From the NCBI GenBank assembly GCA_963749075.1, contig CAVVLJ010000021.1, forward strand, positions 448,001 to 512,000: a DNA stretch of 64,000 bases. The letters are read 5' to 3'. A model generated the notes under the pieces. That model had not been told where the DNA came from and ran no database searches. It saw only the letters and a list, made by a program, of their open reading frames with translations. Positions 22,440 to 40,562 of the stretch are shown here, piece after piece. How positions within the stretch are numbered: position 1 is the stretch's first letter; each line of letters opens with the position of its first letter. The stretch is from an uncultured Pseudomonadota bacterium. GTDB lineage: Bacteria; Pseudomonadota; Alphaproteobacteria; JACZXZ01. A program made the translations under genes and the position numbers.

Positions 22440-22478
22440 GTCCCCGTAGCTCAGCAGGATAGAGCGACAAATTCCTAA
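22440..22478 (+). repeat. attL: 5'-half fragment of tRNA-Arg(CCT)
   Basis: 38/39 nt identical to 40600-40638 (single A/G difference at 22470); identity ends at the anticodon loop ttcctaa. Confidence 0.93.
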
Positions 22479-22597
22479 ACTTTTTTAAGCCATTTTCATG
22501 GCTGAACATAGTGTCGCAAAAATCTGTTTTCTCCTTGTTTTTTATGACGTTAATGTGATCATATGAGCGCATAGCAAATCACCTCTACGCGCCCTGC

Positions 22598-22620
22598 GTG
22601 AGAGCCTATAGAGAGCCTAA
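22598..22620 (+). repeat. putative integrase arm-type binding sites (GAGAGCCTA direct repeats)
   Basis: gtgagagcctatagagagcctaa; 22/23 copy at 40536-40558 inside the other island end. Confidence 0.75.
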
Positions 22621-22623
22621 AGA

Positions 22624-23742
22624 GTGCCTCAGACGCATCTCACCGACCTGACGCTCAAGACACTCGGAGCGCCGGAGCACGGCCAAATTACCTATTGGGA
22701 TGATACGCTCTCCGGCTTCGGATTGCGGGTGTCGCAGGGAGGAGCAAGAACCTTCGTCCTGATCCACGGGAGACGCCGCCAACGGACAACGATCGGCCGC
22801 TATCCGATCATCACCCTTTCCCAAGCGCGCACGAAGGCCAAGGAGCTCTTGGCCGAGCGGACCCTCCGCAAGCACACGCTCCCCGCTATCACCTTTGGAG
22901 AAGCGATCGACTTGTTCCTGTCCACCCATTGCGAGCAAAAGAACAAGGCATCGACGGCTCGGGAAACGAAGAGGCTCTTGCAGAAGCACTTTTCCAGCCT
23001 CCGGCCTGAGAAGCTCGAGGACCTCGCCCCGGACGTGGTTTCGCGGATCATCGACCGGATGCTTCCTACACCCTCGGAGGCCAACCACGCCTTCACGGCT
23101 GTTCGCACCTTCTTCCGTTGGACCGTTCGTCGCCGCTACCTTCTCCATTCCCCCCTTGAAGGGATGAGCCTTCCCACACGTCCGAAATCCAAAGACAGGG
23201 TGCTTACGGACAAGGAGCTGGGCCAGCTGTGGCGGGCCTGCGAGGGACAGTTTGGGACACTCGTTAAGCTCCTCATGCTTACCGGCCAACGAGTCGGAGA
23301 AATTTCCGCACTCCGCTCCGAGTACCTCAATCAGAATACCAAGACGATTACCCTCCCGGCAGGACTTACGAAGAACGGCCGTGAGCACGCCTTCCCTTAC
23401 GGTCCCGCGGCCTCACGTCTCCTGCCGAAGGACAGGCACGGGTACCTCTTCCCGGCCCGCGGGAAGGACAAGCCGATGAATGGCTTCTCGAAGTGCCGGC
23501 TGGCCCTGGACGCGAGGGCCAAGATTGCTCACTGGACGCTTCATGACCTCCGCCGGACGTTCGCGACGAACCTCGCCGCCCTCGGCGTTCCCGTGCACGT
23601 TACCGAAAAACTCCTCAACCATGTCTCCGGTACCATCTCCGGCGTGGCCGCGATCTACAACCGGCACACCTACATGGACGAGATGCGCGCGGCGATGAAG
23701 GCCTGGGAAAAGCATTTGCAATCTCTGGTGGAGCAGGCATAG
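22624..23742 (+). CDS. tyrosine integrase with N-terminal arm-binding domain
   Basis: WDDTLSGFGLRVS, TGQRVGE, TKNGREH, HDLRRT, LLNH and IYNR catalytic motifs. Confidence 0.95.
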   Translation: MPQTHLTDLTLKTLGAPEHGQITYWDDTLSGFGLRVSQGGARTFVLIHGRRRQRTTIGRYPIITLSQARTKAKELLAERTLRKHTLPAITFGEAIDLFLSTHCEQKNKASTARETKRLLQKHFSSLRPEKLEDLAPDVVSRIIDRMLPTPSEANHAFTAVRTFFRWTVRRRYLLHSPLEGMSLPTRPKSKDRVLTDKELGQLWRACEGQFGTLVKLLMLTGQRVGEISALRSEYLNQNTKTITLPAGLTKNGREHAFPYGPAASRLLPKDRHGYLFPARGKDKPMNGFSKCRLALDARAKIAHWTLHDLRRTFATNLAALGVPVHVTEKLLNHVSGTISGVAAIYNRHTYMDEMRAAMKAWEKHLQSLVEQA

Positions 23743-23806
23743 CATTTCCTGCCCGCTAGCTGGTTCCTGGCGGCATCGCGATGCCCCTCTCACAAAGGGG
23801 TGTCCG

Positions 23807-24013
23807 ATGACACAGAAACTGGTCAGCAAGAAAGAGCTGAAATCGCTCTATGGAGTTCCGTATAGCTTCGCGCACATCGCGCGCCTTGAAGCGGCAGGCC
23901 AATTCCCGAAACGGATAAAGCTTGGTGCTTGCAGGGTGGCGTGGTTGGCCGAGGAAGTGCAGAGCTGGATAGACGAGCGCGTTGCTAACCGCGACACGAC
24001 ATCTCCTTCTTGA
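23807..24013 (+). CDS. AlpA family regulator / excisionase
   Basis: GQFPKRIKLGACRVAWLAEEVQSWI motif. Confidence 0.9.
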   Translation: MTQKLVSKKELKSLYGVPYSFAHIARLEAAGQFPKRIKLGACRVAWLAEEVQSWIDERVANRDTTSPS

Positions 24014-24019
24014 AGGGCG

Positions 24020-24049
24020 GGGGTCTGGCTTCCAAACCAGACCCCTTTT
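24020..24049 (+). terminator. rho-independent terminator after alpA
   Basis: ggggtctgg-cttccaaa-ccagacccc-tttt. Confidence 0.7.
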
Positions 24050-24094
24050 CACATTTCCTATTGGGGCCAGCTACAAGGTCGTTCTCGGCGGAAC

Positions 24095-25744
24095 CTAACG
24101 GACCCTTGTCAACTTGATAAAATTTACCTGGACGTTGAAATCCATCGCCTCAATCTTCCGAGCCTCGTCACGAAGCGTTAGCTTGCTAAAGAAGGGTATA
24201 TTATGTGTCCCGTCGCGTCTCGGAAAATCTGCGATCTGGAAATCGACAGTCCAGCGGTCCTTCAGCGCCGATTTGAATTCTTGCGCTTTTTTCGTCCCAT
24301 AATGCTCCCTCACCTTTTCAATCATTCCAACCTTGAACGGATCATATTGCCGTATCAGCTGCGCAGAGTGCCCTCCTTGCTTAAAAAAGTGGCTGAGCAG
24401 GCTCGATTGACGGGAGCTCTTCTTAATATGGATAAAGCGACGCCTCTCGACATCGAGTAAGTCGCACACTTCCATACCTTGGCCTGGTACTTCGTCGATT
24501 TTAACCAACCTCCTATCCATTAGCAGGTAGCCAGCCTCCGTTTCCATTTCCTTATTGTAGGACTCCTCCGATTGGTAGGTAACTCTCGCCCTTTTTGCCT
24601 TTGGACCGGATCGATCAATTTTCCTCAGCGGTCGCAATTTTTTATCCGGCTTACCACGCAGCTTCACGAACTTTTCGTCTGCCGCATCCTTGAATAACTG
24701 ATCTATGCGATACCAATTTCCCTCGTTTAGCGCGTATCGAGCACCATTCAAAATCAACGAGCCGACAAGCGAATCATGCACTGACCAATGGTCACACGGT
24801 CGCTTATCATCCTCGATATAGGCTGCCACGCTATGCTTGTTCAAATCCTCCAAGCTCAATTTTGCTAGATTGCTTCCCAGTGCCTCCCGATACAGGTCGA
24901 GCGACAGATCAGGATAAAACTTCCCAATTCGTGCGTGCTCAAATCGAAAAGACCCGACGCTCTCCGATACAATTTTTGGAATTGCAATTTCAAACTCGTC
25001 ACTCCCTCCGCGAATGGCCGCAACGAGGGCCTCGTCAAGAAGCGATTGAACAGTGTTGTCTAAGACGGGCGAAAGAAAGTCGATGATTTGAAAACTAGTA
25101 TTCTTATATGCCTCAGATTTAAAGAAATTAACAGCTTCTACGGCAGCATCCGGTACATCGGCTATCTCGATCCTCTTCGAGAACCTCAGCGCACGAGAGC
25201 CCGTCACTAAATCTGCAAACTCGTGATCCGCCGTGTAACCGCTTACCTTTCGAATCAGGTCCAACGCGTCATCAAAACCAAATGATCGGAGATCGCGCTG
25301 TCCGGCGGCCTGTGCAAAATCTCGAATCGCTGCGCCAATATTAGAGCGCTCTACACTTCGCAGCTTATCGTCGCTAACGGCGTTGATTGCTACCTTCAGA
25401 CCGAAATCAGCCTCCGTTTTTGAGTGATCCAAATAGACGTGCCCATATGAAAACGTCAGGGCGAAAATAGATTTCTCCTTTTTGAACACCAGAACGGCGC
25501 ACGGTGACTTCGAAAAGAGGTTCTCGGGAAGCGAAAATGAAGCCTTCAGCAATTCGACCCAATTTGGAATACCTTCATGACCAGGAAAAGTGTATAGGCC
25601 GCTACCGTCGCCAAATTCGGCGGAGGGGGTCTTCGTCGCCAGTTTCCGCTTTACCAAATCTCGAGCATTTTCAGTCAACAGGTCGTCAAAGCCGGTTACT
25701 TCAGCCTTTGCAAGATACAGCGAGAACGTGTTCAGTCTTGGCAC
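24095..25744 (-). CDS. DUF6119 / TIGR04141-like sporadically distributed protein
   Basis: FALTFSYG...DFGLKVAIN, ESYN, EVCDLL...FIHIKK...LSHFFKQG and IPFFSKLTL motifs; start uncertain (GTG 25744, frame open to 25819). Confidence 0.8.
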   Translation of the reverse strand: MPRLNTFSLYLAKAEVTGFDDLLTENARDLVKRKLATKTPSAEFGDGSGLYTFPGHEGIPNWVELLKASFSLPENLFSKSPCAVLVFKKEKSIFALTFSYGHVYLDHSKTEADFGLKVAINAVSDDKLRSVERSNIGAAIRDFAQAAGQRDLRSFGFDDALDLIRKVSGYTADHEFADLVTGSRALRFSKRIEIADVPDAAVEAVNFFKSEAYKNTSFQIIDFLSPVLDNTVQSLLDEALVAAIRGGSDEFEIAIPKIVSESVGSFRFEHARIGKFYPDLSLDLYREALGSNLAKLSLEDLNKHSVAAYIEDDKRPCDHWSVHDSLVGSLILNGARYALNEGNWYRIDQLFKDAADEKFVKLRGKPDKKLRPLRKIDRSGPKAKRARVTYQSEESYNKEMETEAGYLLMDRRLVKIDEVPGQGMEVCDLLDVERRRFIHIKKSSRQSSLLSHFFKQGGHSAQLIRQYDPFKVGMIEKVREHYGTKKAQEFKSALKDRWTVDFQIADFPRRDGTHNIPFFSKLTLRDEARKIEAMDFNVQVNFIKLTRVR

Positions 25745-25776
25745 GCCTGCACCGACCGTTAAGCCATCGACCGTAA

Positions 25777-26496
<720 letters not shown>

Positions 26497-26536
26497 CCGG
26501 CAGGGCCATCCTTCGATCGGGATATAATGGATCGAT

Positions 26537-26893
26537 ATGGAAGTCCGGCAGGAGCGCCACATCGCCGACATTCTCAAAGAGCGCAACATCATCCTCAGGG
26601 GCGCCGACGCCGCGACCGCCCAGGGCTTTACCCAAGTCCCGAATTTTCTCCTGAAATCAAAGAAGCTTAGCGCGGGCGACAAGATGGCGTTCGCCATGCT
26701 CCTCAGCTACGCATGGCAGAATGACTACTGCTTTCCGGGCCAACGGCGCCTCGCAGTCGATATGGGGCTAGACGAGCGCAGCGTCCGGAGGCACCTCAAA
26801 TCGCTCGAAGCCAACGGCCTCTTGGCTATCCAGCAGCGAGGGCTGGGGAAGACCAATATCTACGAATTGAACCTCAAGCCGCAGCGGTCGTAA
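26537..26893 (+). CDS. helix-turn-helix replication initiator-like protein
   Basis: FTQVPN...LSAGDK...LLSYA...CFPGQRRLA...ERSVRRHLKSLE..GL...TNIY pattern of phage/plasmid rep N-termini; followed by iterons. Confidence 0.8.
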   Translation: MEVRQERHIADILKERNIILRGADAATAQGFTQVPNFLLKSKKLSAGDKMAFAMLLSYAWQNDYCFPGQRRLAVDMGLDERSVRRHLKSLEANGLLAIQQRGLGKTNIYELNLKPQRS

Positions 26894-26896
26894 GCC

Positions 26897-26973
26897 GATC
26901 CAGACCGGACAAAAATGTCCGGTCCAGACCGGACAAAAACGCTCGGTCCAGACCGGACAAAAACGCTCGGTCC
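26897..26973 (+). repeat. 3.2 x 24-bp iteron array (putative origin)
   Basis: gatccagaccggacaaaaatgtcc, then ggtccagaccggacaaaaacgctc x2, then ggtcc, followed by an AT-rich stretch. Confidence 0.85.
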
Positions 26974-27118
26974 TCTATTAATGATACGCATCTAATGAGA
27001 CCCATTTAAAAATACCCAGTATGCAAAATGCCTTTCATAGAAAGGAAACCCGGAACCCAAAAGGCGCCGCCTGGAGGCGGCCAAGGCGGGGTTATCACCC
27101 CCCCTTACGCCCCGCCTT

Positions 27119-29082
27119 TAGGCCGAGCTTTTCATTGTCCGAAGCGATAAGGCGTTGAGATAGAATCGGAATTCGCCGTTTCGGGCGCTCGAATGTAGCC
27201 ATGCAGTCGTGCCATTTATAGCTTGACGGCGCGAGGTGGGGCTGATTCGATGTGTCATGCACATCGAGTCCGTGCCCAACCGCAAATCGCACCCGACCAT
27301 CCTGCTGCGCGAGAGCTACCGCGCGGAGGGCAAGGTGCGCAAGCGCACCATCGCCAATCTGACGCATTGGCCGGAGCAGCTGGTGGAGGGCTTGCGTACG
27401 CTGCTGCGTGGCGGCGTGGCGGTGGGCGGGGCGGAGGAGGCGCTGAGCATCAGCCGCTCGTTGCCCCATGGGCATGTCGCGGCGGTGCTGGGCACGGCGG
27501 AGCGGCTCGGCTTGGCGAAGCTCTTGAACGAGCGCCGCGGCGGGCCTGACGGGCGGCGCTATCGCGACTTGGTGCTGGCCCTCATCGTCAACCGCGTGAT
27601 CGCGCCGTCGTCCAAGCTGGCGGCGGTGCGGGCGCTGAATGCGGAGACGGCGGCGTCGAGCCTGGGCGAGCGGCTGGGTTTGGGCGCGGTGGGGGAACGC
27701 GAGATATACGCGGCCCTGGACTGGCTCCTCGCGCAGCAGGAGCGGATCGAGAAGGGGCTGGCCAGGCGCCATCTGGCCGGCGGCACGCTCGTCCTCTACG
27801 ACGTGAGCTCCTCGTATCTCGAGGGCCGCTGCTGCGAACTGGCGCAGCACGGCTATAGCCGCGATCATCGTCCCGACCGGCCGCAGCTCGTCTATGGCCT
27901 GCTGTGCAACCGGGAGGGCTGTCCGGTGGCGATCGAGGTGTTCGCAGGCAACACTGCCGATCCAATGACGCTCGCAGCCCAGCTGAGCAAGCTCAAGGGA
28001 CGCTTCGGCCTGGAGCGGGTGGTTCTGGTCGGCGACCGCGGCATGATCACCAGCGCCCGCATCCGCGAGGCGCTCGAGCCGGCGGGGCTGGATTGGATCA
28101 CCGCCTTGCGCGCGCCGAAGATCCAGGAGCTCGCCCAGGGCGGCCCGCTGCAACTGTCGCTGTTCGACGAGCGCGACCTGGCCGAGATCAGCGCCCCGGA
28201 TTATCCGGGCGAGCGCCTGATCGTCTGTCGCAATCCGCTGCTGGCGGCCGAGCGCCGACGCAAGCGCGAAGCCTTGTTGGCCGCGACCGAGCGGGACTTG
28301 AGCCGCGTCAAGCTGGCGGTAGAGCGCAAGCGCGTCCCCCTGCGCGGCAAGGCCGAGATCGGCCTGGACGTCGGCGCCGTGCTCGACAAGCACAAGATGG
28401 GCAAGCACTATGAGCTCTCGATCGGCGATGCCAGCTTCACGTACCGCCGCAAGGAAAGCGCCATCGCCGACGAAGCCCGCCTCGACGGCATCTATGTGAT
28501 CCGCACCAGCGTCCCGGCCGCCGCCCTCACGGCGGAGCAGGCTGTCGGCGCCTATAAATCCCTCGCCCAGGTCGAGCGCGCCTTCCGCTGCCTCAAGACC
28601 GCCGATCTCGAAATCCGCCCGGTCTTCCATTGGACCGCGCCGCGGGTGCGCGCCCATGTGCTGTTGTGCATGCTGGCCTACTACGTCGAATTCCACATGC
28701 GAGGCCATCTGGCGCCGCTGCTCTTCCACGACCACGATCGCGCCGCTGCCGCCGCCGAGCGCAAATCCATCGTCGCCCCGGCACAACGCTCCCCCGCGGC
28801 CAAGCGCAAGGCCACCGCGCGCCGCACCGATGACGGCTTGCCCGTCCATAGCTTCCGCAGCCTCCTCGATGACCTCGCCACCCTCTGCCTCAACAAGGTC
28901 AGCCTGCCCAGCAATCAGACGTACCGCTTCGATCTGCCGACCAAGCCGACGCCCCTCCAAGCCCGCGCCCTCGAACTGCTCGGCGTCGGCCTCGGGCTGT
29001 AGTCAGTACGCGACCATCACAAGCCCGATTTATCGAGTCGGCTCAGTGACTTGCTCATGTTCAAAGTAAAAAGTTCAGGCTA
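27119..29082 (+). mobile_element. IS1634-family insertion sequence
   Basis: Imperfect terminal IRs taggccgagcttttca / taaaaagttcaggcta around a single transposase; GC rises inside the element. Confidence 0.8.
27257..29002 (+). CDS. IS1634 family transposase
   Basis: LLRESYR.EGKVRKRTIANL, LYDVSS, GYSRDHR, VGDRGM, LDGIYVIRT and VERAFR motifs. Confidence 0.92.
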   Translation: MHIESVPNRKSHPTILLRESYRAEGKVRKRTIANLTHWPEQLVEGLRTLLRGGVAVGGAEEALSISRSLPHGHVAAVLGTAERLGLAKLLNERRGGPDGRRYRDLVLALIVNRVIAPSSKLAAVRALNAETAASSLGERLGLGAVGEREIYAALDWLLAQQERIEKGLARRHLAGGTLVLYDVSSSYLEGRCCELAQHGYSRDHRPDRPQLVYGLLCNREGCPVAIEVFAGNTADPMTLAAQLSKLKGRFGLERVVLVGDRGMITSARIREALEPAGLDWITALRAPKIQELAQGGPLQLSLFDERDLAEISAPDYPGERLIVCRNPLLAAERRRKREALLAATERDLSRVKLAVERKRVPLRGKAEIGLDVGAVLDKHKMGKHYELSIGDASFTYRRKESAIADEARLDGIYVIRTSVPAAALTAEQAVGAYKSLAQVERAFRCLKTADLEIRPVFHWTAPRVRAHVLLCMLAYYVEFHMRGHLAPLLFHDHDRAAAAAERKSIVAPAQRSPAAKRKATARRTDDGLPVHSFRSLLDDLATLCLNKVSLPSNQTYRFDLPTKPTPLQARALELLGVGLGL

Positions 29083-29198
29083 GAATAACGGTGGTACCGA
29101 ACGGACCGCAAAGACCCGACTAGGCCGGGCGAGCGAACTACGCAGAGTGATCAGGATTGCTCTTTTAAAACAGCGCCGAGACATAATTGGGGGACGAG

Positions 29199-30179
29199 AT
29201 GAACTCATCGCAGCAGATGGGAGTATCCGGATGCCGGTTGAGTGACGGGAGATTGCACTTAGGCCATTATCTTGGTTGTCTCCATCCGGAGAAGACCAAA
29301 CAAATCGGGGAGCTCTTCTTTGTCATTCAAGACGGTAAAACCAACTACTTAGCAGGTAAACCGCCGTCCGTGGAGCCGTTAGCCCTACTTCTCGCGCAAC
29401 TATACGCCTTTTGCACTGAAGATTGCACTATTGTTCCGTGCCTCCAAAGCAAAATCTTTCCTGCCTATGCGCCACTTTTTGATTTTGCCAGAGCCGTGAT
29501 TACGTTACGGGGCCTGGAGAGGGTCCATCCGAAGAAGGATGACTTGAAGGCTGCATTCGGTATTCCTCTTAGGGATTATCTTTTTCCAGTCGATCAAGCC
29601 GTTCAGTTCCTAGCGTTCGGGGCTGATTTTATTCTCATGAATGACGACAACATTCGCTTTGCGAGATTGGCAAATAACCTTCACAAGAAGCTTACCACAG
29701 CGGAGCACCGATCTATGCCGGCACCACGAATGGCACTTGATCCGGTCCCGAGATTGCTTGGAAGCAATGGGCAAAAAATGTCGAAGGCCAACGGCAACTG
29801 CATATTCCTTACGGACGACGACCGGACTGTAACCGAGCAGATTAGGAATTACGCTCGACGAATAGGCTGGAGGTGGACAAGAGATTGCCGATGGGAGTAC
29901 GAAGGAGAAGTCGCCCTGTCAGAAGAAATAGGCTCTGGCTCTGCCCTAGCTTCGATCTGTTTTACCTTTCAACTCGATTTTCCAGATTTGCGTTTGGCCG
30001 TCGAGTCAGTGCCCGACCTTATTGAACATCTTATAAAGCGTATCGTTCCATTAATTTCTGACGTTAGAGCGCGTACGCATGAAGCCATGAAATCAAAAGG
30101 GCTATTGTTTGACCGCTTAGCGGCTGACTCCACGCGTGCAACTCACCGAATTGCGAATACGATCGGGGCACTGATATGA
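29199..30179 (+). CDS. divergent tryptophanyl-tRNA synthetase-like (class Ic) protein
   Basis: GRLHLGHYLG (HIGH) and GQKMSKA (KMSKS) motifs at TrpRS length; FPVDQAVQ and MNDDN stand where TrpRS has YPxxQAAD and VGEDQ. Confidence 0.8.
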   Translation: MNSSQQMGVSGCRLSDGRLHLGHYLGCLHPEKTKQIGELFFVIQDGKTNYLAGKPPSVEPLALLLAQLYAFCTEDCTIVPCLQSKIFPAYAPLFDFARAVITLRGLERVHPKKDDLKAAFGIPLRDYLFPVDQAVQFLAFGADFILMNDDNIRFARLANNLHKKLTTAEHRSMPAPRMALDPVPRLLGSNGQKMSKANGNCIFLTDDDRTVTEQIRNYARRIGWRWTRDCRWEYEGEVALSEEIGSGSALASICFTFQLDFPDLRLAVESVPDLIEHLIKRIVPLISDVRARTHEAMKSKGLLFDRLAADSTRATHRIANTIGALI

Positions 30180-30895
30180 CGGATCGTCGATTCGTGTTAC
30201 TCATCCGGCACGCGGACTCAGAAAAAAATGCACTCGGTCAGTTTGCTGGCGATGCGTCTTCCGACCGACTTACTATGGCTGGGAAGCTTCAGCTAGAGCG
30301 CGTAAGGAGTGAAATTAACTCAATCATTAGCGCACTTGGGATCAAGTCGATCAGAATTGCACATGCTGATTCAGAACGCGCTAAGACGACCGCAGTCGCT
30401 CTTGCGGGTCCACTCGGCGCCGCGCTAAAGGCAGTTCCAGAATTTCGCTCAATTCGGTCTGGCATTGCAGCTGGCATGACAGAAAGTGAGATCGCAATTC
30501 AGTATCCCGAGTTCTACAATTCATTGACATTATATCGTGCGGGCGTTCTGTCCTCTTACGATATACCGTATCCGCTCGGCGCCGAGCGCGTTCAGGACTT
30601 TGAACGCATAGTCGAGGGCGCGCTGAGGAATCTGCTCTCCGATGCAGTCAACCAGTTCTTCATCGTTATTGGACATAGATCATCAATCACTGCAATTCTA
30701 CTGTATTACGCACGCCTCGTTCACGAATATCCATCAAATTTCTTCGGATATATACCGTTGGACCCGTGCGTCACGTCCTGTATTGACATACGGCTAGGCG
30801 CCGAGCAGATACTTTGGGTAAACCGAACGATTGACCGATCGTTTCTCGTTGGGGTCGTTAATAGGGTCGGGAGCACAGCGTCACGAAATGGCTAA
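30176..30895 (+). CDS. histidine phosphatase superfamily protein
   Basis: LLIRHADSEKN (RH[G/A] motif), RAKTTA, GAE and GHRSSI; ATGA overlap with the upstream gene. Confidence 0.85.
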   Translation: MTDRRFVLLIRHADSEKNALGQFAGDASSDRLTMAGKLQLERVRSEINSIISALGIKSIRIAHADSERAKTTAVALAGPLGAALKAVPEFRSIRSGIAAGMTESEIAIQYPEFYNSLTLYRAGVLSSYDIPYPLGAERVQDFERIVEGALRNLLSDAVNQFFIVIGHRSSITAILLYYARLVHEYPSNFFGYIPLDPCVTSCIDIRLGAEQILWVNRTIDRSFLVGVVNRVGSTASRNG

Positions 30896-31528
30896 GGGTC
30901 GCCTACCTTCCAGCACCCTCTCGGCCATTATCAAAGCCGTTAGGTAATAATTTTGAATCCGCGGTAGAAACCGGTTCTTCGTAATTTCTTCTACGCAAGA
31001 AATCCAAACGTGAGCTTTCGCATCATATCGGATTCCATTCACACGTATGATCTCTAACTTTTCTTCAAACAGCTTCATGCCTGCGCTGACTGGAAGCGCC
31101 AAGAGGCCGTGCACCTCGTTTGGATCGGGGCGGTAGCTCTCAAGTGGTCTGTCATCTCTGAGCATAAAGACTCCCTGATATTCTCTATTTAGCTGACCGT
31201 TCTCCTGATCTGCCACTTCCACACGGTACCCGAGCCATTTTAAATCGCTCGAGCGCACGGTAATACCAAGCTCCTCTGATACTTCACGGATACCATCACT
31301 AAGTTCCTCACCTGTACGGAGATGCCCGGCTGCGGTTATATCCAGAAGATTCGGGTAATTCTTTGCCACAGGCGAGCGAAGCTGAAAAAGCAGGCTTCCT
31401 TTGTACTCTCCAGTTACTACCCAAAGATGAAAAGTCCGGTGCCATGCTCCCTGCATGTGTGCCGACAGTCGATCAGCAACACCGGTCTTTTTGAGATTCG
31501 CGTCGAATATGTCGATCTGTTCGGACAT
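30881..31528 (-). CDS. NUDIX hydrolase (IDI-like subfamily)
   Basis: HRTFHLWV, LDITAAGH and Nudix box GHLRTGEELSDGIREVSEELGI. Confidence 0.88.
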   Translation of the reverse strand: MSEQIDIFDANLKKTGVADRLSAHMQGAWHRTFHLWVVTGEYKGSLLFQLRSPVAKNYPNLLDITAAGHLRTGEELSDGIREVSEELGITVRSSDLKWLGYRVEVADQENGQLNREYQGVFMLRDDRPLESYRPDPNEVHGLLALPVSAGMKLFEEKLEIIRVNGIRYDAKAHVWISCVEEITKNRFLPRIQNYYLTALIMAERVLEGRRPLAIS

Positions 31529-31538
31529 GGAGAGACTT

Positions 31539-32830
31539 CTACTGGTTGCGAACTGATAGGGTTCTGGCCACCTTCTGCCTCTTGGCATGAATCTCGAGTG
31601 CGGCGGTTCGACGTCCTAGAGCCGTTAGGAGGCGCTCTTCGAGAACAAGGCCTTTGTTTAATCGCTCGTAGTCGGCGATTGATTCAAACGAAGTGGTAGC
31701 AGCGCTAACGAGCGCTAGGGCGTCCATCGCCTTTTTTGTCGATTCCCTATCTTTCGGTAAGTCGCTCCCGTGGTTGAGAACACCTAAGCTCCGGGCGAGA
31801 ATCGTTGCTCGGGCGTGGTCGATCTGCGCCTTGTCGCGAACCAAGGCATCTTTAAAGTGTTCGACATTCTCGTTAAGGCCTCTCAGGGACGTAATCACCT
31901 CCTCCGCTCGGTCCAAGAACCTATGGCCATCCTCCTCCCGCTGAGTCATCATTGCCATATGCCTATAACCCTTGGCTGCTGTGAGTCGCATTTCAACTAT
32001 ATCAGAAGCATTTTGTGTACTCTGAGCAGTAGCAATCTCAATTCCGCGTTGGATGTTCTCTAAGGCGACTGCATCCTGTCCTAGGAGGTGCGACGCCCAT
32101 CCAAGGTCGTCGACGAGAACCCGTGCTCTGTCCAACGCGGCCTCTGTGTCGACCGCGGCAACAAGCGCCATTTCACCTAATTTGACTTCTCGTTTGATTC
32201 TCCACCGATTAGGTGCAACAGATGAGACATACTTTCGCGAATATGTAGCACAGTGGTCATCTTACCTTGTTGTACAAGCATAGCAACATATTCCGTGAGG
32301 GCCTTAACAAATGCAGCTTGACAGTCATTCACGGAAGCATTTTCACGTGGCAACGCTGCGCGTCGAAGAATGGCATTTTGATGCCCTCGGATAAGCGACT
32401 CATAGTAGGTCTCGAGCTGTCGGATCCTATCAGATGCGATCTTCTGCCATTGCGCTTCGTCTGGGGCCTTCGGTTTCGTGGCATACGCTTCCCACGCCGA
32501 CCCTCGCACCTTCTTCTCAACGCCCTTGGTTCTATAATGGGGGTGAGTCCCACTGTAGCTAAGAGTTGCCAGAAGTTCCGCAGTAACATTAATCTGTCTT
32601 GACGACGCGTTCTTGCCCTTCCAAATCGCGCGCTTCCAGTTCGAAAGATCGCTTTGGGACAAACCTAAACTCTTACGAAAATCGCCAGAGTGGTCCCGAC
32701 CTTCCGAAAAGGCTGCCGCCACCCAGCTGAAGAAACTCTCAATCGAAGCGATTAAGGTCGGTTCCGGAGGTGGAACCTCCGAGACCTCGTACGTTTCAGG
32801 GTCCCCCATGACGCCCTCCGAGGTACACAT
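31539..32830 (-). pseudogene. HTH-like plus helical-repeat (TPR-like) protein, split by a probable 1-nt frameshift near 32190
   Basis: ORFs 32177-32830 and 31539-32171 join as LLHLIGGESNE-x-VKLGEMALVAA if one base is restored; N-terminal RKSLGLSQSDLSNWKR; C-terminal DDLGWASHLLG...ALENIQRGIEIA. Confidence 0.6.
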
Positions 32831-33311
32831 ATCATAAATCGGAGAGGCGTCGCAAGTTGGGCGCTAATTTGCCCAAGATGACGCCCAAGCCCGCGGCCAA
32901 ATTTTCCAGAAAATAGGTCCAACTGGGCTACATAAATTGCGCGACGGTACCAAGCTACATTGGTCCTGACGCGTTCGCATGCCAGACCATAATCCCTCAC
33001 TGATGCTCGCGCCACTTCATTAGGAGGGTCCAATGGATCACTTCGTCTTAGCGGCCCATGCGATCGTCTTGGCGATCGCCGCCACCCGCGAGTGGGCCTC
33101 AAGATGCGATGGAACTCATGCGATCGACGAACAATTCGCGATGCACGTCGCTGCGGCAGTCGCCATCTTCGAGTGGCTCAGGGTTATTAGCCTTTTTTGG
33201 GCGTGACAGGGTCGCCGCCGGGACGCCGGCGGCGGTTACTCGCCCGCCTTTGACCTGCCGGTGCTGAGCCCTGCGTTGCCACCTGCGGAACGAGAAACAA
33301 CGGAGAAAAAC

Positions 33312-33783
33312 ATGAGCTACGTTAAACATGAGCTTTTGGCTAACGAAAAGATCATCTTCCAGGGGAGGCTTCACTGGATCATCTTTTGGAAAGCCTTGAC
33401 GTTTGCCATTTGTGGTACTGGAATGCTGCCTCTCGGATACGCGCTTGGTGAAAGCCATGTGGTTATTCTTACGATTTCCGCATTCGCGTATTTTATTGCA
33501 GCTTGTCTGTTCGTGCCCGCTTGGTTTATTCGGTGGACTACGGAGTTCGCGGTCACAAATTTGAGGGTGATACACAAGACCGGATTTGTCTCCCGCCATA
33601 CCGAGGAAATGAATATTGGTAGGATTGAGTTTGTGGACGTTGATCAAACGATCCTCGGAAGAATTTTCGATTACGGTACGATTTCATGTGCTGGGAACCG
33701 GGCACGGTATTGAACACCTTCACTGTATCGCTGAGCCAATTAGGATTAGGAACGCAATTGTTGAAAGAGAGCATAGCTCATAG
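33312..33783 (+). pseudogene. bacterial PH domain (bPH_2) membrane protein, frameshifted near 33682
   Basis: Two TM segments, TTEFAVTNLRVIHKTG and VDQTILGRIFDYGTI; shifted frame continues HVLGTGHGIEHLHCIAEPIRIRNAI. Confidence 0.75.
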
Positions 33784-33794
33784 TGTCTTGCTCT

Positions 33795-33905
33795 TCTGCT
33801 GTTGGGAACCCTTCTTCGCAACACGTAGAAGATCGCGTTGACGATCTCGCGCCATGTCCAATCACGCGGCCTACTGAGCCGCTCCGGCGGCGGCGGAAGT
33901 CTAGT
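33795..33905 (-). mobile_element. IS5-family transposase N-terminal remnant
   Basis: Minus strand reads LPPPPERLSRPRDWTWREIVNAIFYVLRRR. Confidence 0.7.
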
Positions 33906-34032
33906 GTCTTATTGATGAACCCACGCGGCTACTCGCGCGCTGGAACGGATAACATGGTGCGGTATTGACAGAGCCTAAGTCGAATCCCGATTACAAACGG
34001 GAAGAACGGACGCTCACCGTTACAAAGGACTT

Positions 34033-34695
34033 TCAATCTTCCCAAAAGGACTTGAATCGCTCCGGCGAGAGCTCGGTGTAGCGTACCGTGTGCTGGATAT
34101 TCTTGTGTCCGAGATAGTGCTGTACAGCACGCGTGTCCTGTCCGTCGTTCGCGAGTTTGTACCCGCAGGCGTGCCGGAGCATGTGCGGGTGAATCGGAAA
34201 CGGAAATTTCGCGGTCCCCCCTATCCGTGCAAGCATCTTACGAAATCCCGCGGGCGTCATCGGCGCCCGGCGCTCGGTGTTGAACACGTAGCGCGATTGC
34301 GGCTCCTCGCGCTTGAGCCTGCGAAGTGATCGGATTTCGTTCCCGCCCATCGGATGCACGCTCGGCGTTCCGTTCTTGAGGCGCCGGACGTGGAGCAGAT
34401 CATTTCCCAGATCGACCTGATCCCATCTTAGCACGCAGAGCTCTCCAGGCCGAAGCCCGTGGCGGTACGCCGTGAGGATCATCGTCGCATTGCGATGCCC
34501 GTAGCGCCCCCGCTCCCGAGCGGTGCCCATGAGCAGTCCGACTTCCTTGAGCGTGAGATATTCCCGCGGCCGGCGCGTGCTGTTGCCTACTCGGCGCGGG
34601 GGTACTGTCCCATTTATAGTGCTTGGCGGTCTCCGCCGCCGGATGTTTTTGGCCTTTGTTTTCCCTGTCGCCATATCGTCTACTGTCCCGTTCAT
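34033..34695 (-). CDS. FimB/FimE-like tyrosine recombinase
   Basis: ~200 aa, REYLT..EV, RHGLR, RLKNG, HPHMLRHACG and YLGHKNIQHTVRYT motifs. Confidence 0.9.
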   Translation of the reverse strand: MNGTVDDMATGKTKAKNIRRRRPPSTINGTVPPRRVGNSTRRPREYLTLKEVGLLMGTARERGRYGHRNATMILTAYRHGLRPGELCVLRWDQVDLGNDLLHVRRLKNGTPSVHPMGGNEIRSLRRLKREEPQSRYVFNTERRAPMTPAGFRKMLARIGGTAKFPFPIHPHMLRHACGYKLANDGQDTRAVQHYLGHKNIQHTVRYTELSPERFKSFWED

Positions 34696-35000
34696 GCCTC
34701 TTTTCGGGACAGTTCAACTTTACCACACCCTGGCAGCTCCAAGCATGAACGCTTCTGAACTCGACTCTCCCATTCTCTTCCCTTAACTCGCCACCTCGAA
34801 ATCGATTTCCCTCGAACCGCTATGTCGGCAGGCCACGCTTGCCTGACCTAGGGATACCTTGATGAACGACCTCCTTTTGCGAGCGCCTGCTCAATGCTAT
34901 TCTAAGCGCGCGAGCACCACGATGGTCGACGTCTGGAAAAACGTCGGAGACGATCGGTCTGCGACGCCCCATTCGATAACCCTATTAATCGGAGCGACAC

Positions 35001-36011
35001 TTGCCAGATAGTTCGATAAGGCCGAAAACTAAGCGCCGCAATGGAGCGGTCACACGTGCATATCGCACGAAGCTCGGTAAGATGATCAATGGAACCATCG
35101 AAGATGCCCTTAGTCACCACGAACTAGCTCGAGCTCGAGGCAAGGTCAATCTCATTCTAACTTCGCCACCCTTTCCATTAGTCAGAAAGAAGCGTTACGG
35201 AAACAAGTCAGGAAAAACATATGTCGCTTGGCTTAAGGGCCTCGCGCCCCGGCTCGCCGAGTTGCTCGCGCCGAACGGATCAATTGTGATCGAGGTGGGC
35301 AACGCATGGGTAGAGGGATCGCCTGCCATGTCGACGTTGCCCATTGAAGCGCTTCTTGCATTCAAGAGAGCGGCAAAGCTCCACCTCTGCCAGCATATAA
35401 TTTGCCACAACCCGGCGCGGCTTCCGAGTCCGGCCGAGTGGGTAAATGTCCGACGCATCCGCTTGAAAGACTCGTTCACCCATGTATGGTGGATGTCTCG
35501 ATCCGAGTTACCGAAAGCCGATAATCGAAATGTCCTCACGCCATACGGCAAACAAATGAGGAAGCTTTTGAAAACAAAAAAATATAACTCCGGTAGGCGC
35601 CCGTCTGGCCACGTGATTTCGAAAACGGGATTTCTAAAGGACCGCCAGGGCGCAATCTCGGCCAACGTTATTGACTTTGCTCCCGAAGACCCCAAGTTAC
35701 CCCGCTCCCTTCTAAAATTCTCGGGCACTTCGTGGGACATAAATTACCGCAAATACTGTGAAAAGAAGAAAACAGCCGTTCACCCAGCGCGCATGCAAAT
35801 GGATTTGGCCGCGTTTTTAATACAATTTCTAACTGATCTAGGAGATTTAGTCTTAGACCCTTTTGCGGGATCAAATACAACCGGAGCCGCCGCAGAAGAG
35901 CTTGGCCGCCGCTGGATAAGTGTTGAGGCAATATCCGGATACGTCAAAGGGTCGAAAGGGCGCTTCAATCAGTTCGCGAAGCGTCGGAAGGCGAGCACCA
36001 AAAACCGATAA
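35001..36011 (+). CDS. site-specific DNA methyltransferase (beta class, likely N4-cytosine)
   Basis: LILTSPPF catalytic motif first, then HPAR and VLDPFAGSNTTG SAM-binding motif. Confidence 0.9.
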   Translation: MPDSSIRPKTKRRNGAVTRAYRTKLGKMINGTIEDALSHHELARARGKVNLILTSPPFPLVRKKRYGNKSGKTYVAWLKGLAPRLAELLAPNGSIVIEVGNAWVEGSPAMSTLPIEALLAFKRAAKLHLCQHIICHNPARLPSPAEWVNVRRIRLKDSFTHVWWMSRSELPKADNRNVLTPYGKQMRKLLKTKKYNSGRRPSGHVISKTGFLKDRQGAISANVIDFAPEDPKLPRSLLKFSGTSWDINYRKYCEKKKTAVHPARMQMDLAAFLIQFLTDLGDLVLDPFAGSNTTGAAAEELGRRWISVEAISGYVKGSKGRFNQFAKRRKASTKNR

Positions 36012-36019
36012 GTATCGGA

Positions 36020-37609
36020 ATGGAGGAGGCAATGACCTCTGACAAGATTGAAACCGAGCTCACTATAGGTCCGGAGGCTATCGACGCATATAGCCGGCTC
36101 AATTATACAATGTGGCACGCCCTCGCTGAGTTTATCGATAACTCGACGCAGTCAAGGGTGAACTATGAGCCGATCATTGATGACGTGCTAAAAAGTGAGG
36201 GGCAGCCTCTCACTGTCGAGATTAACCACAACCGCCTACGCAAGGAGATAACCGTTAAAGACAATTCGATTGGAATGACGAGAGACGACCTGATCCAAGC
36301 CCTCCGCATCGCTCATCGAACCAAGGACAGCAAGGGACGTTCGAAGTACGGCATGGGAATGAAGACAGCTGCATGTTGGATAGGTCGCACTTGGAAGGTT
36401 GTGACATGCGAGTGGAGCAGCGGCGAGGAATGGACGGCAGAGATCGATGTCAAAGCGATCGCACATGATAATAAGAAGATTTCGCTGAGTATGCGCCCTG
36501 TAAGTAGGGATGAGCATTACACACAAATAGTCATATCTGACCTCCATCGAAACATCCAGGCGCGCACCGAGGAAACTATCAAAGGGTACCTTGGATCGAT
36601 GTATCGGGTCGATCTCCTCGCGGGCAACCTCAAGATTTTGTACAACGGCGACGAAGTGAAGGCACCGGAAGAATACGACATCGATACAGACCCCTCGGGT
36701 AATCAGTATAAGCGGGAGTTGCCCGAGACTAAGATCAACGGCAAGATTGTAAAAGGCTGGATTGCCGTGCTTCGAAAAGGTGGCCGCAAGTTTGGCGGGT
36801 TTTCGTTGTTCCAAAACAATAGACAAATTCAGGGATTTCCCCACGCATGGAAACCGAGAAGTATTTACGGCGGTGTGGACGATGAAGGGGCCAATAATCT
36901 GATCTCCCAACGCCTCGTGGGGGTTTTCGATTTGGACGGTTTCGAAGTGTCGCATACGAAGGACGCCATTCTCTTCGAGGATGACGAAGAAGAACAGATT
37001 GAACGCCTGCTTTTTGGGTTTACAAAAGACTATCGAGACTACGCGCAAAGGCGTCGTGGCCCGCGCGGAACGCCGTGGTCCCGGGACAAGGTTCGTGACT
37101 TAATCGAGAGCATGAAGAAAGAGTTTGTTACTCCCGAAATGAAGGACGCAATAAACAATTCGCTGCTTCCTCCGATCGACACGATTATCGGAAACAACGA
37201 GCAGCGACGCGACGCGCTAACCGACGCAGAAAAGCTGGCAACGATCGAAGTCCTACCAGAGCTTCGCGTCGTCGTCTCGCTTCAGGAAAAGAGCGAGCAT
37301 GAGCCGCATCTGACGATCGTAGCTGGCGCTACAGCAGGTACTATTCACGTAATTATAAACGGACTGCATCCCTACTACTGCGCCTTAGATTCCAGCGACG
37401 CAGTGGACGAGTGCATTCGTCAATATCTCTATGATGCCATCTCGGAATATCGGGTATCCAAACTCACTGGGGGAATTAATCCCAACAGCATTCGTCGACT
37501 TAAAAACGATCTCCTTCGGGTCGATGCGGTACGGATAGAGGATGCAGCCAAGGCCGTCCAAGATGGAGAGTTTGAGGCAATTATCCGCGGCGAGGCCTCA
37601 AAAGCATAA
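36020..37609 (+). CDS. MORC/GHKL-type ATPase
   Basis: ALAEFIDNS, DNSIGM, GRSKYGMGMKTAA and HYTQIVI Bergerat-fold motifs; S5-like middle domain (NRQI, SHTKD). Confidence 0.85.
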   Translation: MEEAMTSDKIETELTIGPEAIDAYSRLNYTMWHALAEFIDNSTQSRVNYEPIIDDVLKSEGQPLTVEINHNRLRKEITVKDNSIGMTRDDLIQALRIAHRTKDSKGRSKYGMGMKTAACWIGRTWKVVTCEWSSGEEWTAEIDVKAIAHDNKKISLSMRPVSRDEHYTQIVISDLHRNIQARTEETIKGYLGSMYRVDLLAGNLKILYNGDEVKAPEEYDIDTDPSGNQYKRELPETKINGKIVKGWIAVLRKGGRKFGGFSLFQNNRQIQGFPHAWKPRSIYGGVDDEGANNLISQRLVGVFDLDGFEVSHTKDAILFEDDEEEQIERLLFGFTKDYRDYAQRRRGPRGTPWSRDKVRDLIESMKKEFVTPEMKDAINNSLLPPIDTIIGNNEQRRDALTDAEKLATIEVLPELRVVVSLQEKSEHEPHLTIVAGATAGTIHVIINGLHPYYCALDSSDAVDECIRQYLYDAISEYRVSKLTGGINPNSIRRLKNDLLRVDAVRIEDAAKAVQDGEFEAIIRGEASKA

Positions 37610-37613
37610 CCAC

Positions 37614-38771
37614 GTGGTGCCAAAATTGGAACTCCGAAACTGGCAAAACGAGGCGTTGGCTCGATGGGAGGAGAATAGCCACCGCGGCATAATCGAAGTC
37701 GTTACCGGAGGAGGTAAGACCATATTTGCACTGTCGTGCATCGATAAGCTAAATCCCGATACGTCGCTGGTAGTAGTTCCGACCATTGCGCTATTGGATC
37801 AATGGTGGGAGGAAGCAGCAAGTTTTTTTGGCATCGAGATCGATGAGGTTCATGTCATCACCGGACGGCAGAAGGTCAGAGTTGGCACGATTAATCTTGC
37901 GGTGCTCAACACTGCATCGAAGCTCCATGAACAAGCCCGAAGTCAGCGTTGCTTCCTAATTGTCGATGAATGCCATAAGGCAGCGAGCGAACAATTTCGG
38001 GCCGTCTTGAATATTCCTACGGTTGCGACCCTCGGTTTATCGGCGACACCAGAACGTCCTTACGATGATGGGCTTCGCGCAATTCTTGTTCCTGCCCTTG
38101 GCCCCGTAATTTATACATACAGCTATAGAGACGCCCTTCGTGATGGCGTGATAGTCCCATTCGCCCTTCGCAACATACTATTTGAGCTCGAGGAGGACCG
38201 GCAAAAAGAATATAGCAAGCTTACCAAAGCAATCGCCCGTACCATTGACCTGTATGGTGTTGACGCACAAGAGACGGTCAAGCTGTTTTTACGCCGCGCC
38301 CGAGTGCTAAATCTTAGTCTCAATCGCGTTCGTTTGGCCCTGAAAATTGTTGCCGCCCATAAAGGTCAGCGAGTGTTGATTTTTCACGAGGACATCGAAG
38401 CATGCAATTTGATTCACCAGATTCTTGCGGAAAACAAAGTGCGGGTTGGAATATATCACTCGAAGATGTTGCTTCGTGACCGTGTTGACATGCTGTCGGC
38501 ATATCGCAGGGGCGTCGTGGATGTGCTCGTCACCTGTCGGGCGCTTGATGAAGGGTTCAATGTGCCTGAGACTGAGATCGGTATTATAGCCGCGAGCACG
38601 GCAACGAGGCGTCAGCGCATCCAGCGTCTGGGGCGAGTCCTCCGCCCCTCTATGGGCAAGGGCAGAGCCATTGTATATACCCTCGTTGCAACCGAGCCGG
38701 AAATTGGGCGGTTGCAAGCGGAAGAAACGGACCTTGAGGGTGTCGCTGATGTGACGTGGGGGCACGCGTGA
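37614..38771 (+). CDS. DEAD/DEAH-box SF2 helicase (XPB/ResIII-like)
   Basis: LRNWQ, TGGGKT, DECH, LSAT, LDEGFNVP and QRLGRVLR motifs. Confidence 0.9.
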   Translation: MVPKLELRNWQNEALARWEENSHRGIIEVVTGGGKTIFALSCIDKLNPDTSLVVVPTIALLDQWWEEAASFFGIEIDEVHVITGRQKVRVGTINLAVLNTASKLHEQARSQRCFLIVDECHKAASEQFRAVLNIPTVATLGLSATPERPYDDGLRAILVPALGPVIYTYSYRDALRDGVIVPFALRNILFELEEDRQKEYSKLTKAIARTIDLYGVDAQETVKLFLRRARVLNLSLNRVRLALKIVAAHKGQRVLIFHEDIEACNLIHQILAENKVRVGIYHSKMLLRDRVDMLSAYRRGVVDVLVTCRALDEGFNVPETEIGIIAASTATRRQRIQRLGRVLRPSMGKGRAIVYTLVATEPEIGRLQAEETDLEGVADVTWGHA

Positions 38772-38945
38772 GAACGATTTTTGTTGGTGAATGCGCCCCG
38801 GACAAGATTCTTCACGTGTCCGACCCTGACGCTCCGAACGAAACCCAATTCGAGTTTATGGTGGTTAGAGCGTTATCATGCGTCTACCCTGACTATTTAT
38901 GCTTCATTTTTGGTGGATCGTTTCGTTACGATGACAAACTTTGCC
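38768..38945 (+). pseudogene. 5' fragment of a gene interrupted by IS3 (possible nuclease)
   Basis: GTGA overlap with the helicase stop; reads VRTIFVG...NETQFEFMVVRALSCVYPDY...; cut at the IS left end. Confidence 0.6.
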
Positions 38946-40558: not shown

Positions 40559-40562
40559 GCAT

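Follow-up and report, generated by a model that had tools for sequence, protein, structure and literature searches.

The window analysed here is a stretch of 64,000 nucleotides from an uncultured alphaproteobacterium (positions 448,001 to 512,000, forward strand, of contig CAVVLJ010000021.1, assembly GCA_963749075.1), and the gene under study, at 29199..30179, descends from tryptophanyl-tRNA synthetase (TrpRS). To judge from its sequence, the reading that the product of this paralog does not act on tryptophan appears well supported, and the gene is probably a paralog with new chemistry; we cautiously favour a functional TrpRS-descended enzyme that would no longer be a tryptophan-tRNA ligase. 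It represents a new TrpRS-derived family that lies in a conserved, mobile cassette with a Nudix hydrolase, a phosphatase and a tetratricopeptide repeat (TPR) protein. This cassette and its setting in a mobile island, which an earlier sequence-only reading of the same DNA had not mentioned, are the strongest clue. The gene and its diagnostic motifs are listed below, residues being numbered throughout on the 330-aa form that starts at a TTG (minus 4 for the ATG form).

29199..30179, forward strand: TrpRS-like paralog ("NDDN" family), 326 aa from the ATG at 29199, identified through PF00579, TIGR00233 and an AlphaFold2 model
29256..29267, forward strand: HIGH motif HLGH (H24-H27), by direct translation; H24, G26 and H27 are present in 56/56 family sequences
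29523..29537, forward strand: VHPKK loop, aligning with the NPTVK / MTQFK loop of canonical TrpRS
29583..29606, forward strand: FPVDQAVQ, replacing YPxxxAAD (Tyr to F133, indole-binding Asp to Q140), by translation and alignments
29631..29651, forward strand: ILMNDDN, replacing VPVGxDQ (G to N152, D154 kept, Q to N155), by translation and alignments
29775..29789, forward strand: KMSKS-type loop KMSKA, by direct translation

The reading frame is open from the TTG at 29187 (29187..30179, 330 aa), four codons before the ATG at 29199; the purine-rich GGGGACGAG stands just 5' of that ATG, and the 326-aa form is the one held in the database as protein P0001. The strings HLGH, KMSKA, FPVDQAVQ and ILMNDDN, as quoted in the sequence-only reading, are each found by direct translation in this frame. 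The protein is a member of PF00579 (tRNA-synt_1b, the class I superfamily of W and Y synthetases), where its residues 21-238 score 35.3 bits against a gathering threshold of 21.1, and it fails TIGR00233, the model of bacterial TrpRS (EC 6.1.1.2), with 52.2 bits against an equivalog cut-off of 176.75.

Fold, tryptophan pocket and family of the paralog

The by-eye alignment from which the sequence-only reading had deduced a rewired pocket is borne out by three alignments, made with phmmer, by profile-profile comparison with hhalign and by superposition of a structural model. Among PDB sequences, phmmer retrieved TrpRS only, the best match being TrpRS II of D. radiodurans (2a4m/1yi8, E 4e-14), whose segment fvYPVSQAADiaaFGAtlVPVGDDQ it pairs with ylFPVDQAVQflaFGAdfILMNDDN of the paralog. 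When a profile of 56 family members was compared by hhalign with a profile of 20 canonical TrpRS, including the trpS product of the same genome, the two aligned with probability 100 over 313 columns reaching to the C-terminus, and the YPNLMAAD...VPVGEDQ of the genome's own trpS fell on FPVDQAVQ...LMNDDN. The AlphaFold2 model of the paralog, built with the family alignment, is confident (predicted local distance difference test 93.7, predicted template modelling score 0.91). Over 299 residues (model 9-330), it superposes on M. tuberculosis TrpRS with bound Trp-AMP (7elt), the best structural match, with Z 27.1 and a root-mean-square deviation of 3.1 A; on B. stearothermophilus TrpRS (1i6k), residues 9..330 of the model cover 1..319 of the chain with Z 26.5. 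Among the best 50 structural matches, 49 are TrpRS entries and one is a designed esterase (3u1v), and the Foldseek TM scores to the bacterial TrpRS chains listed are 0.55-0.75. The class I Rossmann fold is thus present together with HLGH and KMSKA, and so is the C-terminal helical domain (anticodon-binding in TrpRS), since the model aligns through residue 330 and hhalign agrees. In the predicted structure, then, the complete bacterial TrpRS architecture is kept, with a Rossmann catalytic domain and a C-terminal helical domain. With its offset of +8, the 1i6k alignment yields the following correspondences.

B. stearothermophilus TrpRS Y125: paralog F133
B. stearothermophilus TrpRS M129: paralog Q137
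B. stearothermophilus TrpRS D132: paralog Q140
B. stearothermophilus TrpRS G144: paralog N152
B. stearothermophilus TrpRS E145: paralog D153
B. stearothermophilus TrpRS D146: paralog D154
B. stearothermophilus TrpRS Q147: paralog N155

The two halves of the active site have fared differently. On the ATP and adenylate side, the predicted elements are kept, namely HLGH, the Lys of the VHPKK loop (its last, aligned with the loop Lys that contacts ATP in TrpRS), KMSKA and, from what was GxDQ, Asp154. On the Trp-recognition side, polar residues have come in instead (F133, Q137, Q140, N152, D153 and N155). In TrpRS, we take Y125, D132 and Q147 to be the Trp-binding residues; where canonical enzymes have the Tyr of YPxxxAAD, the indole Asp and the Gly and Gln of GxDQ, the paralog has F133, Q140, N152 and N155. 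The same Y, indole-binding D(132), G, D and Q are invariant in 20/20 canonical TrpRS sequences, a set for which G, D and Q partly served as selection criterion and Y and D132 did not. Because the HIGH histidines and D154 are invariant in the family, the paralog would still use ATP, and its substrate may be small and polar rather than an indole.

The paralog is not an isolated oddity. A word-indexed search of 5.8 billion proteins returned 7 close relatives (29-55% identical), and an exhaustive HMMER search of 1.84 billion cluster representatives returned 290 proteins at E <= 0.001, of which 77 at E <= 1e-10; a large subset of these hits has in common GLHLGH[YFV]xGC, an xHPxK loop, [LF]FPxxQA and x-N-D-D-N in place of VPVGxDQ. 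To place the paralog relative to housekeeping TrpRS, a tree of 123 rows was inferred with IQ-TREE from the paralog, the genome's own trpS, 30 canonical TrpRS drawn at random from 83 (the other 53 being omitted) and all retrieved proteins of 290-470 aa without the canonical motif, shorter and longer ones being dropped. The paralog falls in a separate clade of 72 rows, opposite a 51-row side that holds all 30 canonical TrpRS and the own trpS. The separating branch, which lies on both sides of the midpoint root and is a single branch when unrooted, has a support of 100 in the Shimodaira-Hasegawa-like approximate likelihood ratio test (SH-aLRT). At the GxDQ position, this clade carries N[DN]DN in 62 proteins, NDDS in 3, NxDN in 3 and TGND in 4. 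We define the NDDN family, to which the paralog belongs, by a HIGH motif of the GLHLGH type, by Phe instead of the pocket Tyr, by N-D-D-N instead of GxDQ and by membership of the 72-row clade.

Within the 56-sequence family alignment, R17, H24, G26, H27, G30, N152, D154 and N204 are invariant, and F133, D153, N155 and M198 are at least 90% conserved; the invariance of NDDN is partly by construction, since members were picked as non-canonical hits. The paralog carries every family-invariant residue. The Q140 column, equivalent to the indole Asp, is variable within the family, and the second Lys of KMSKS varies across the wider family. Against the two closest relatives with DNA (loci L083 and L084), the proportions of nonsynonymous (pN) and synonymous (pS) differences are 0.33 and 0.84 for L083, and 0.24 and 0.92 for L084; because synonymous sites are saturated at pS of 0.84-0.92, we claim only that pN is much smaller than pS, and give no dN/dS proper. 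Neutral decay, which the sequence-only reading had named as grounds for abandoning its view, is not what the family displays, given pN much below pS, an intact reading frame and a full-length fold, and selection clearly acts on the family taken together. Compared with canonical TrpRS, the family has a higher median isoelectric point (pI; 8.7 vs 6.2) and a lower ratio of C-terminal to N-terminal information (0.55 vs 0.70), so that its C-terminal part is relatively less conserved, which weighs little as evidence. No fused forms of the family were found at E <= 1e-5 among proteins of 579-2000 aa, an observation of similarly small weight.

The searches also brought up a second non-canonical TrpRS-like group (P0124, P0130, P0142 and P0146; also P0113, P0125, P0136 and P0159), which has SN[IVS]DNK for VPVGxDQ as well as KMSKAK, and which branches nearer canonical TrpRS. 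Three of its members (P0130, P0142, P0146) carry an N-terminal GNAT acetyltransferase fusion, and P0124 a P-loop kinase and a GNAT. In a further protein, P0119, a TrpRS catalytic domain with canonical motif is fused to an IspD-type cytidylyltransferase (PF01128, 113 bits).

The gene is an extra one in the genomes that carry it. The contig that bears the paralog also holds a canonical trpS, which scores 306.4 bits against the TIGR00233 cut-off of 176.75, the paralog scoring 50.6 bits in the same genome search. Four other carriers (G149, G456, G457 and G458) each have at least one trpS above the cut-off, with paralogs at 45-78 bits or undetected, which makes a housekeeping trpS accompany the paralog in 5/5 genomes examined. 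An auxiliary or drug-resistant TrpRS would be expected to keep the Trp pocket and to group with canonical sequences; the paralog does neither, as seen from its alignment to TrpRS II and from the branch with SH-aLRT 100. The contrast that the sequence-only reading had drawn with indolmycin-resistance TrpRS copies accordingly holds, given the replaced pocket, the 52.2 bits against 176.75, the separate clade and the presence of an own trpS. What stands of that reading is that the gene does not encode a normal or resistant Trp-charging TrpRS and that its ATP-side motifs are intact; the adenylation of something other than Trp, which it had gone on to propose, is retained here only as what the residues suggest. 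Against the tRNA independence that it had raised as well speak the C-terminal helical domain, kept in both the model and the profile alignment, and the more basic character of the family. Genes for nitric-oxide synthase or indole antibiotics were absent among the island ORFs (open reading frames) scanned, a search that did not extend to the rest of the genome.

The conserved cassette and its mobile island

Downstream of the paralog lie its partner genes, the fourth protein of the cassette being split in the window.

30176..30895, forward strand: histidine-phosphatase-superfamily (branch 1) enzyme (PF00300, 60.4 bits), its start overlapping the stop of the paralog (ATGA)
30881..31588, reverse strand: IDI/YfcD-like Nudix hydrolase with a conserved C-terminal extension (PF00293; NF002995 at 57 bits, below cut-off)
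31539..32171, reverse strand: orf210, the C-terminal, TPR-like half of the fourth protein (tblastn to loci L085, L088, L089 and L127)
32177..32830, reverse strand: orf217, the N-terminal half of the fourth protein, a separate ORF in another frame (stop, 5 nt, ATG)

We compared this arrangement with 14 other loci, from genomes of Chloroflexota, Chlorobiota and Bacteroidota, from soil and other metagenome contigs and from one genome of the window's own class. The histidine phosphatase gene adjoins the paralog in 13 of them, the fourteenth (L084) ending inside the paralog, and a Nudix gene is found in 11 of the 14, the remainder being L083 and L084, where the upstream 650-750 bp are unrelated, and L092, which comes without upstream sequence. 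In the window too, the paralog stands beside both genes. The usual order is TPR protein, Nudix, sometimes a methyltransferase, paralog and phosphatase, all on a single strand; in the window, the Nudix gene is instead convergent with the pair of paralog and phosphatase. Inversion mediated by an insertion sequence (IS) was considered as the cause of this layout, and is weakened by the lack of an upstream Nudix gene in L083 and L084 as well, which suggests that the convergent layout may be normal for the subclade.

The partner enzymes look active, as far as can be told from their residues. In the phosphatase, R11, H12, R68 and E103 are invariant in 9/9 cassette copies and the second catalytic His is present in 8/9; in the Nudix enzyme, R101, E102, E105 and E106 of the Nudix box and several IDI-like His are invariant in 8/8 copies, and an Ala stands at what we take to be the position of the IDI catalytic Cys. 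The Nudix protein is 52-55% identical to the copies of L085, L088, L089 and L127, the paralog 29-42% between the same loci. A predicted complex of paralog and histidine phosphatase obtained a score of 0.00 against a mark of 0.32, which counts neither for nor against binding. In L085 and L089, the inserted gene is a Methyltransf_11 member, and its best matches in the PDB are methyltransferases that act on small molecules or natural products.

The fourth protein is a single chain of 307-441 aa in L085, L088, L089 and L127 and occupies two frames in the window, where the C-terminus of orf217 matches, colinearly, a central part of the homologues of 413 and 441 aa that ends right where the match of orf210 begins. 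Pfam has no family for orf210 (210 aa) or orf217 (217 aa); proteins of the orf210 type occur in L085, L088, L089 and L127, and a Pfam TPR_12 protein takes the same place in L002 and L003. A model of the 413-aa homologue from L127 displays a confident C-terminal array of helical hairpins after 150 N-terminal residues of low confidence; its structural neighbours are TPR proteins only, and weak, and Foldseek returned none at E <= 0.001. A helix-turn-helix in orf217, suggested by eye, finds no support in the empty Pfam result or in the low-confidence N-terminal 150 residues of the L127 model.

The cassette is cargo of an integrative island, the main further features of which are as follows.

22440..40676, no strand assigned: ~18-kb low-GC integrative island, from a tRNA-Arg half copy to an intact tRNA-Arg
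27236..29002, forward strand: IS4-type DDE transposase, host-like in composition (GC 0.69; GC at third codon positions 0.885), 185 bp upstream of the paralog
24095-25819, reverse strand: full-length DUF6119 protein (431.6 bits) at the left island end, also matching a PHROG of unknown function (84 bits)

The ends of the island are marked by ~42 nt that directly repeat the 5' half of tRNA-Arg(CCT) (22440-22481) and by the intact tRNA-Arg (40600-40676), and the cassette has a GC content of ~50% in a genome of ~70%. The sequence upstream of the left tRNA copy is native and high in GC, whereas that upstream of the intact tRNA is AT-rich and belongs to the island. Further island genes include a short tyrosine recombinase (220 aa) and an rve-type IS. 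No terminal inverted repeats were found around the IS4-type transposase gene, and a scan for promoters and terminators stayed at chance level. Between 35001 and 38771, three genes follow one another, the first for a Type II DNA methyltransferase (PDLC03323, 241 bits), the second for a GHKL/HATPase_c_3 protein and the third for a PbeA-like helicase (258 bits, profile positions 239-635). The ORFs of the ATPase and the helicase overlap by ~67 nt, and the group might serve in defence, by sensing phosphorothioates or in a restriction-like way, or might include a split gene.

The family is rare. Neither 5 genomes of the same genus nor 10 of the same family yielded the paralog; relatives gave 7 weaker matches of 75-116 bits (L094-L100), whose motif was not read and whose range is that of canonical TrpRS elsewhere. 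A 401-genome sample of the phylum holds it in 2 (the window genome and G149), the other 25 hits being canonical VPVGxDQ, and a 401-genome sample around a Bacteroidota member holds it in 1, the centre genome itself. Elsewhere the cassette has conflict genes for neighbours. In G149 (locus L127), it is surrounded by an integrase, two DDE transposases and an ORF with a Tox-ART-HYD1 ADP-ribosyltransferase domain (L127 5028-5510, reverse strand), and in L087 it adjoins an AbiEi/AbiEii pair (L087 2683-4289, forward strand). The flanks of the cassette in metagenome contig L088 encode an 819-aa WD40-repeat protein (9843-12302, forward strand) and a 1162-aa protein without Pfam family (22-3510, forward strand). 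In a scan of viral contigs, 54 stretches matched the search pattern and 0 encode a relative; among PHROGs, the paralog has a weak match only, to a family of unknown function (24.9 bits). PADLOC-DB 2.0 (2023) has 0 families for the paralog, the histidine phosphatase, the Nudix enzyme, orf210, orf217 or the L127 TPR protein. As for RNA, 12 of 13 related loci have no tRNA gene, L089 having a tRNA-Cys at its far end; Rfam finds nothing in window 23000-41500 beyond tRNA-Arg and one sub-threshold small-RNA hit; and no RNA runs with the window stretch were found, the matching runs being DNA of one soil-metagenome study, which may be the source of the window.

Possible functions

Taken together, these observations lead us to favour, as somewhere between slightly more likely than not and likely, a functional, ATP-dependent TrpRS derivative that would not act on Trp and would work with the Nudix, phosphatase and TPR partners. 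Its pairing with a Nudix enzyme and a phosphatase suggests that either the substrate or the product is linked to a nucleotide. On this basis, the paralog could bind ATP and activate a polar, non-aromatic substrate, most simply a carboxylate converted to an acyl-adenylate, and could hand the activated substrate on to a nucleotide-type acceptor, at a hydroxyl or an amine; this acceptor would stand in for the ribose of tRNA A76. The Nudix enzyme would take off pyrophosphate, and the phosphatase the remaining phosphate, from a nucleotide precursor or from the product, either before or after acyl transfer, and a small effector or signal of nucleoside type, acylated or aminoacylated, may result, in a system that the TPR protein would regulate or scaffold. 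This specific scheme, with acyl or aminoacyl transfer to a free nucleotide and removal of pyrophosphate and then phosphate, we hold to be well short of an even chance. Rather unlikely, and offered as speculation, is a bolder form of it, in which a tRNA-independent ligase would form an ester between the ribose of a free nucleotide and a polar acyl or aminoacyl group, and the Nudix enzyme and histidine phosphatase would strip the result to a natural puromycin-like aminoacyl-nucleoside that mimics the 3' end of a charged tRNA. Made on demand by the mobile cassette of 4-5 genes, with the TPR protein in control, this product would serve as a chemical weapon or anti-phage translation blocker, and the family would be the first TrpRS-derived one outside translation.

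Several points weigh against an ATP-dependent, non-translational enzyme of this kind. Its adenylation, its substrate and its acceptor are all things that we infer from sequence. The retained C-terminal domain, anticodon-binding in TrpRS, and the median pI of 8.7 would fit an RNA substrate, the varying second Lys of KMSKS suggests that adenylate formation may not be the common chemistry, and the variable Q140 column that there may be no single substrate for the family. The cassette has no further genes of a typical nucleoside-antibiotic cluster, and the two closest relatives, L083 and L084, have no upstream Nudix gene. In the window itself, the split TPR gene and the IS 185 bp upstream mean that this copy could be inactive, and the genomic context covers 15 loci of a clade with ~60 other representatives.

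The features that fit RNA also feed an alternative that we consider unlikely, albeit worth keeping in sight, namely a synthetase that is still directed at RNA and has acquired a new specificity. Some amino acid other than Trp, or another acyl group, would be attached to a tRNA or to a 3' end resembling one, perhaps to supply a step that depends on aminoacyl-tRNA, perhaps to poison or defend by mischarging, and the Nudix enzyme and phosphatase would deal with RNA ends or by-products. The full TrpRS architecture with its C-terminal helical domain, the intact HIGH and KMSKA motifs, the more basic character of the family relative to canonical TrpRS and the conflict-type neighbourhood speak for it; 13 of 14 cassettes, however, have no tRNA in or beside them (the only ones being a tRNA-Cys ~3.8 kb off in L089 and the attachment tRNA-Arg), the partner enzymes are all of small-molecule or nucleotide type, and the lower C/N information ratio (0.55 vs 0.70) points, weakly, the same way. 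A resistance module, in which the TrpRS-like pocket would hold a nucleotide-based, aminoacyl-adenylate-like toxin for degradation by the Nudix enzyme and phosphatase, strikes us as improbable. Nudix and phosphatase would indeed form a degradative pair, the cassette is island cargo as resistance genes are, and the sister TrpRS-like group with GNAT (P0130, P0142, P0146) or kinase and GNAT (P0124) resembles antibiotic-modifying sets, GNATs such as MccE and RimL being able to acetylate aminoacyl-nucleotides. That group, however, falls on the canonical side of the tree, outside the paralog's clade, we know of no toxin for this pocket, and the invariant HIGH histidines suggest the use of ATP over passive binding.

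Still less credit goes to an auxiliary or antibiotic-resistant true TrpRS that would go on making Trp-tRNA-Trp. Its case is that D. radiodurans TrpRS II is the best PDB sequence match, that the fold is that of TrpRS and that second TrpRS copies are known, as tabulated in a review (Table 1, PMC9437257). The replacement of Tyr, indole-Asp, Gln and the Gly of GxDQ together, a score far below the equivalog cut-off, the separate clade and the lack of nitric-oxide synthase or indole-antibiotic genes among the island ORFs scanned make it very improbable. We would be just as surprised if the window copy were a decaying remnant without function on a degrading island, as the split TPR partner, the IS directly upstream, the short recombinase ORF (220 aa) and the lack of RNA data found might suggest; its ORF is intact with all family-invariant residues, the histidine phosphatase and Nudix genes next to it are likewise undamaged and encode their catalytic residues, long-term pN is much smaller than pS, and the family is clearly under selection.

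Comparison with known systems

Bacterial TrpRS (TIGR00233; 7elt, 1i6k, 1yi8/2a4m) and the paralog have the full-length fold in common (Z 24-27, model 9-330), as well as the HIGH and KMSKS-type motifs and the Asp of GxDQ that binds ribose, and their C-terminal helical domains are homologous. The paralog differs in that other residues replace Tyr, Asp, Gln and Gly in the Trp site, in its 52 bits against 176.75, in its own clade, in never being the sole TrpRS-type gene (5 genomes checked) and in its fixed gene neighbourhood. The GNAT- and kinase-GNAT-fused TrpRS-like proteins resemble it through an N-x-D-N type motif (SN[IVS]DNK) and KMSKAK, and differ by their place on the canonical side of the tree and their N-terminal fusions; we found no account of them in the literature searched. 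Cyclodipeptide synthases (CDPSs) use aminoacyl-tRNAs without ATP and have no HIGH or KMSKS motifs. The paralog, in contrast, has HIGH, KMSKA and the C-terminal domain, and a Pfam scan of it gave no CDPS family.

The scheme favoured above would follow known aminoacyl-nucleoside pathways. The puromycin pathway combines a Nudix enzyme and a phosphatase (Pur7/Pur3) with a ligase. The likeness of the cassette to such nucleoside-antibiotic pairs, with tubercidin as a further case, would lie in the removal of pyrophosphate and then phosphate beside a ligase and methyltransferases; it is a likeness of proposed function, and the cassette, with 4-5 genes, has no dehydrogenase, aminotransferase or other core genes of these clusters. 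As to CDPSs, which are TyrRS/TrpRS-like, two reviews support a common descent of the class Ic catalytic fold (PMC9437257, PMC12945691), and the CDPS AlbC is described there as being without the C-terminal tRNA-binding domain (PMC9437257).

In the literature searched, supplementary tables not covered, no account was found of this family or cassette, nor any in which a TrpRS-like protein is partnered by a Nudix enzyme or a histidine phosphatase. Table 1 of a 2022 review of synthetase duplications has TrpRS II and indolmycin-resistant TrpRS as its only TrpRS entries, with "-" for paralog function (PMC9437257), and a 2026 review of aminoacyl-tRNA-dependent biosynthetic enzymes names AcmF and SbzA and contains "TrpRS" 0 times (PMC12945691). 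A search within the text of PMC9503650 gave 0 matches, and PMC13464706 (NARP3), considered as a candidate, is unrelated to the family.

Family-level models name these genes "tryptophan--tRNA ligase", a name that is very probably wrong. The family is now defined by a signature (HLGH kept, GxDQ to NDDN, Tyr to Phe), a confident model, fixed partners and mobile islands, on the strength of which few experiments could reveal a new ATP-dependent ligation, and possibly a nucleotide-derived effector or signal. Such an outcome would have precedents, since synthetase paralogs have repeatedly been found with new chemistry, as in MshC, GluQ-RS, AcmF and the hydrazine synthetases. Aminoacyl-tRNA synthetase-like paralogs with non-translational chemistry include the CysRS-like MshC, GluQ-RS, the MetRS-like domains of hydrazine synthetases, the AlaRS-like AcmF, which aminoacylates a nucleoside sulfamate (ascamycin), and the IleRS-like SbzA (PMC9437257, PMC12945691); MshC and the MetRS-like hydrazine synthetases provide the precedent for tRNA-independent ligases of class I descent (PMC9437257). 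None of them is TrpRS-derived or, in the texts consulted, reported with a Nudix/histidine-phosphatase/TPR cassette, and what the NDDN family would share with them is an ATP-activating synthetase scaffold that serves a small molecule, often in a dedicated gene cluster.

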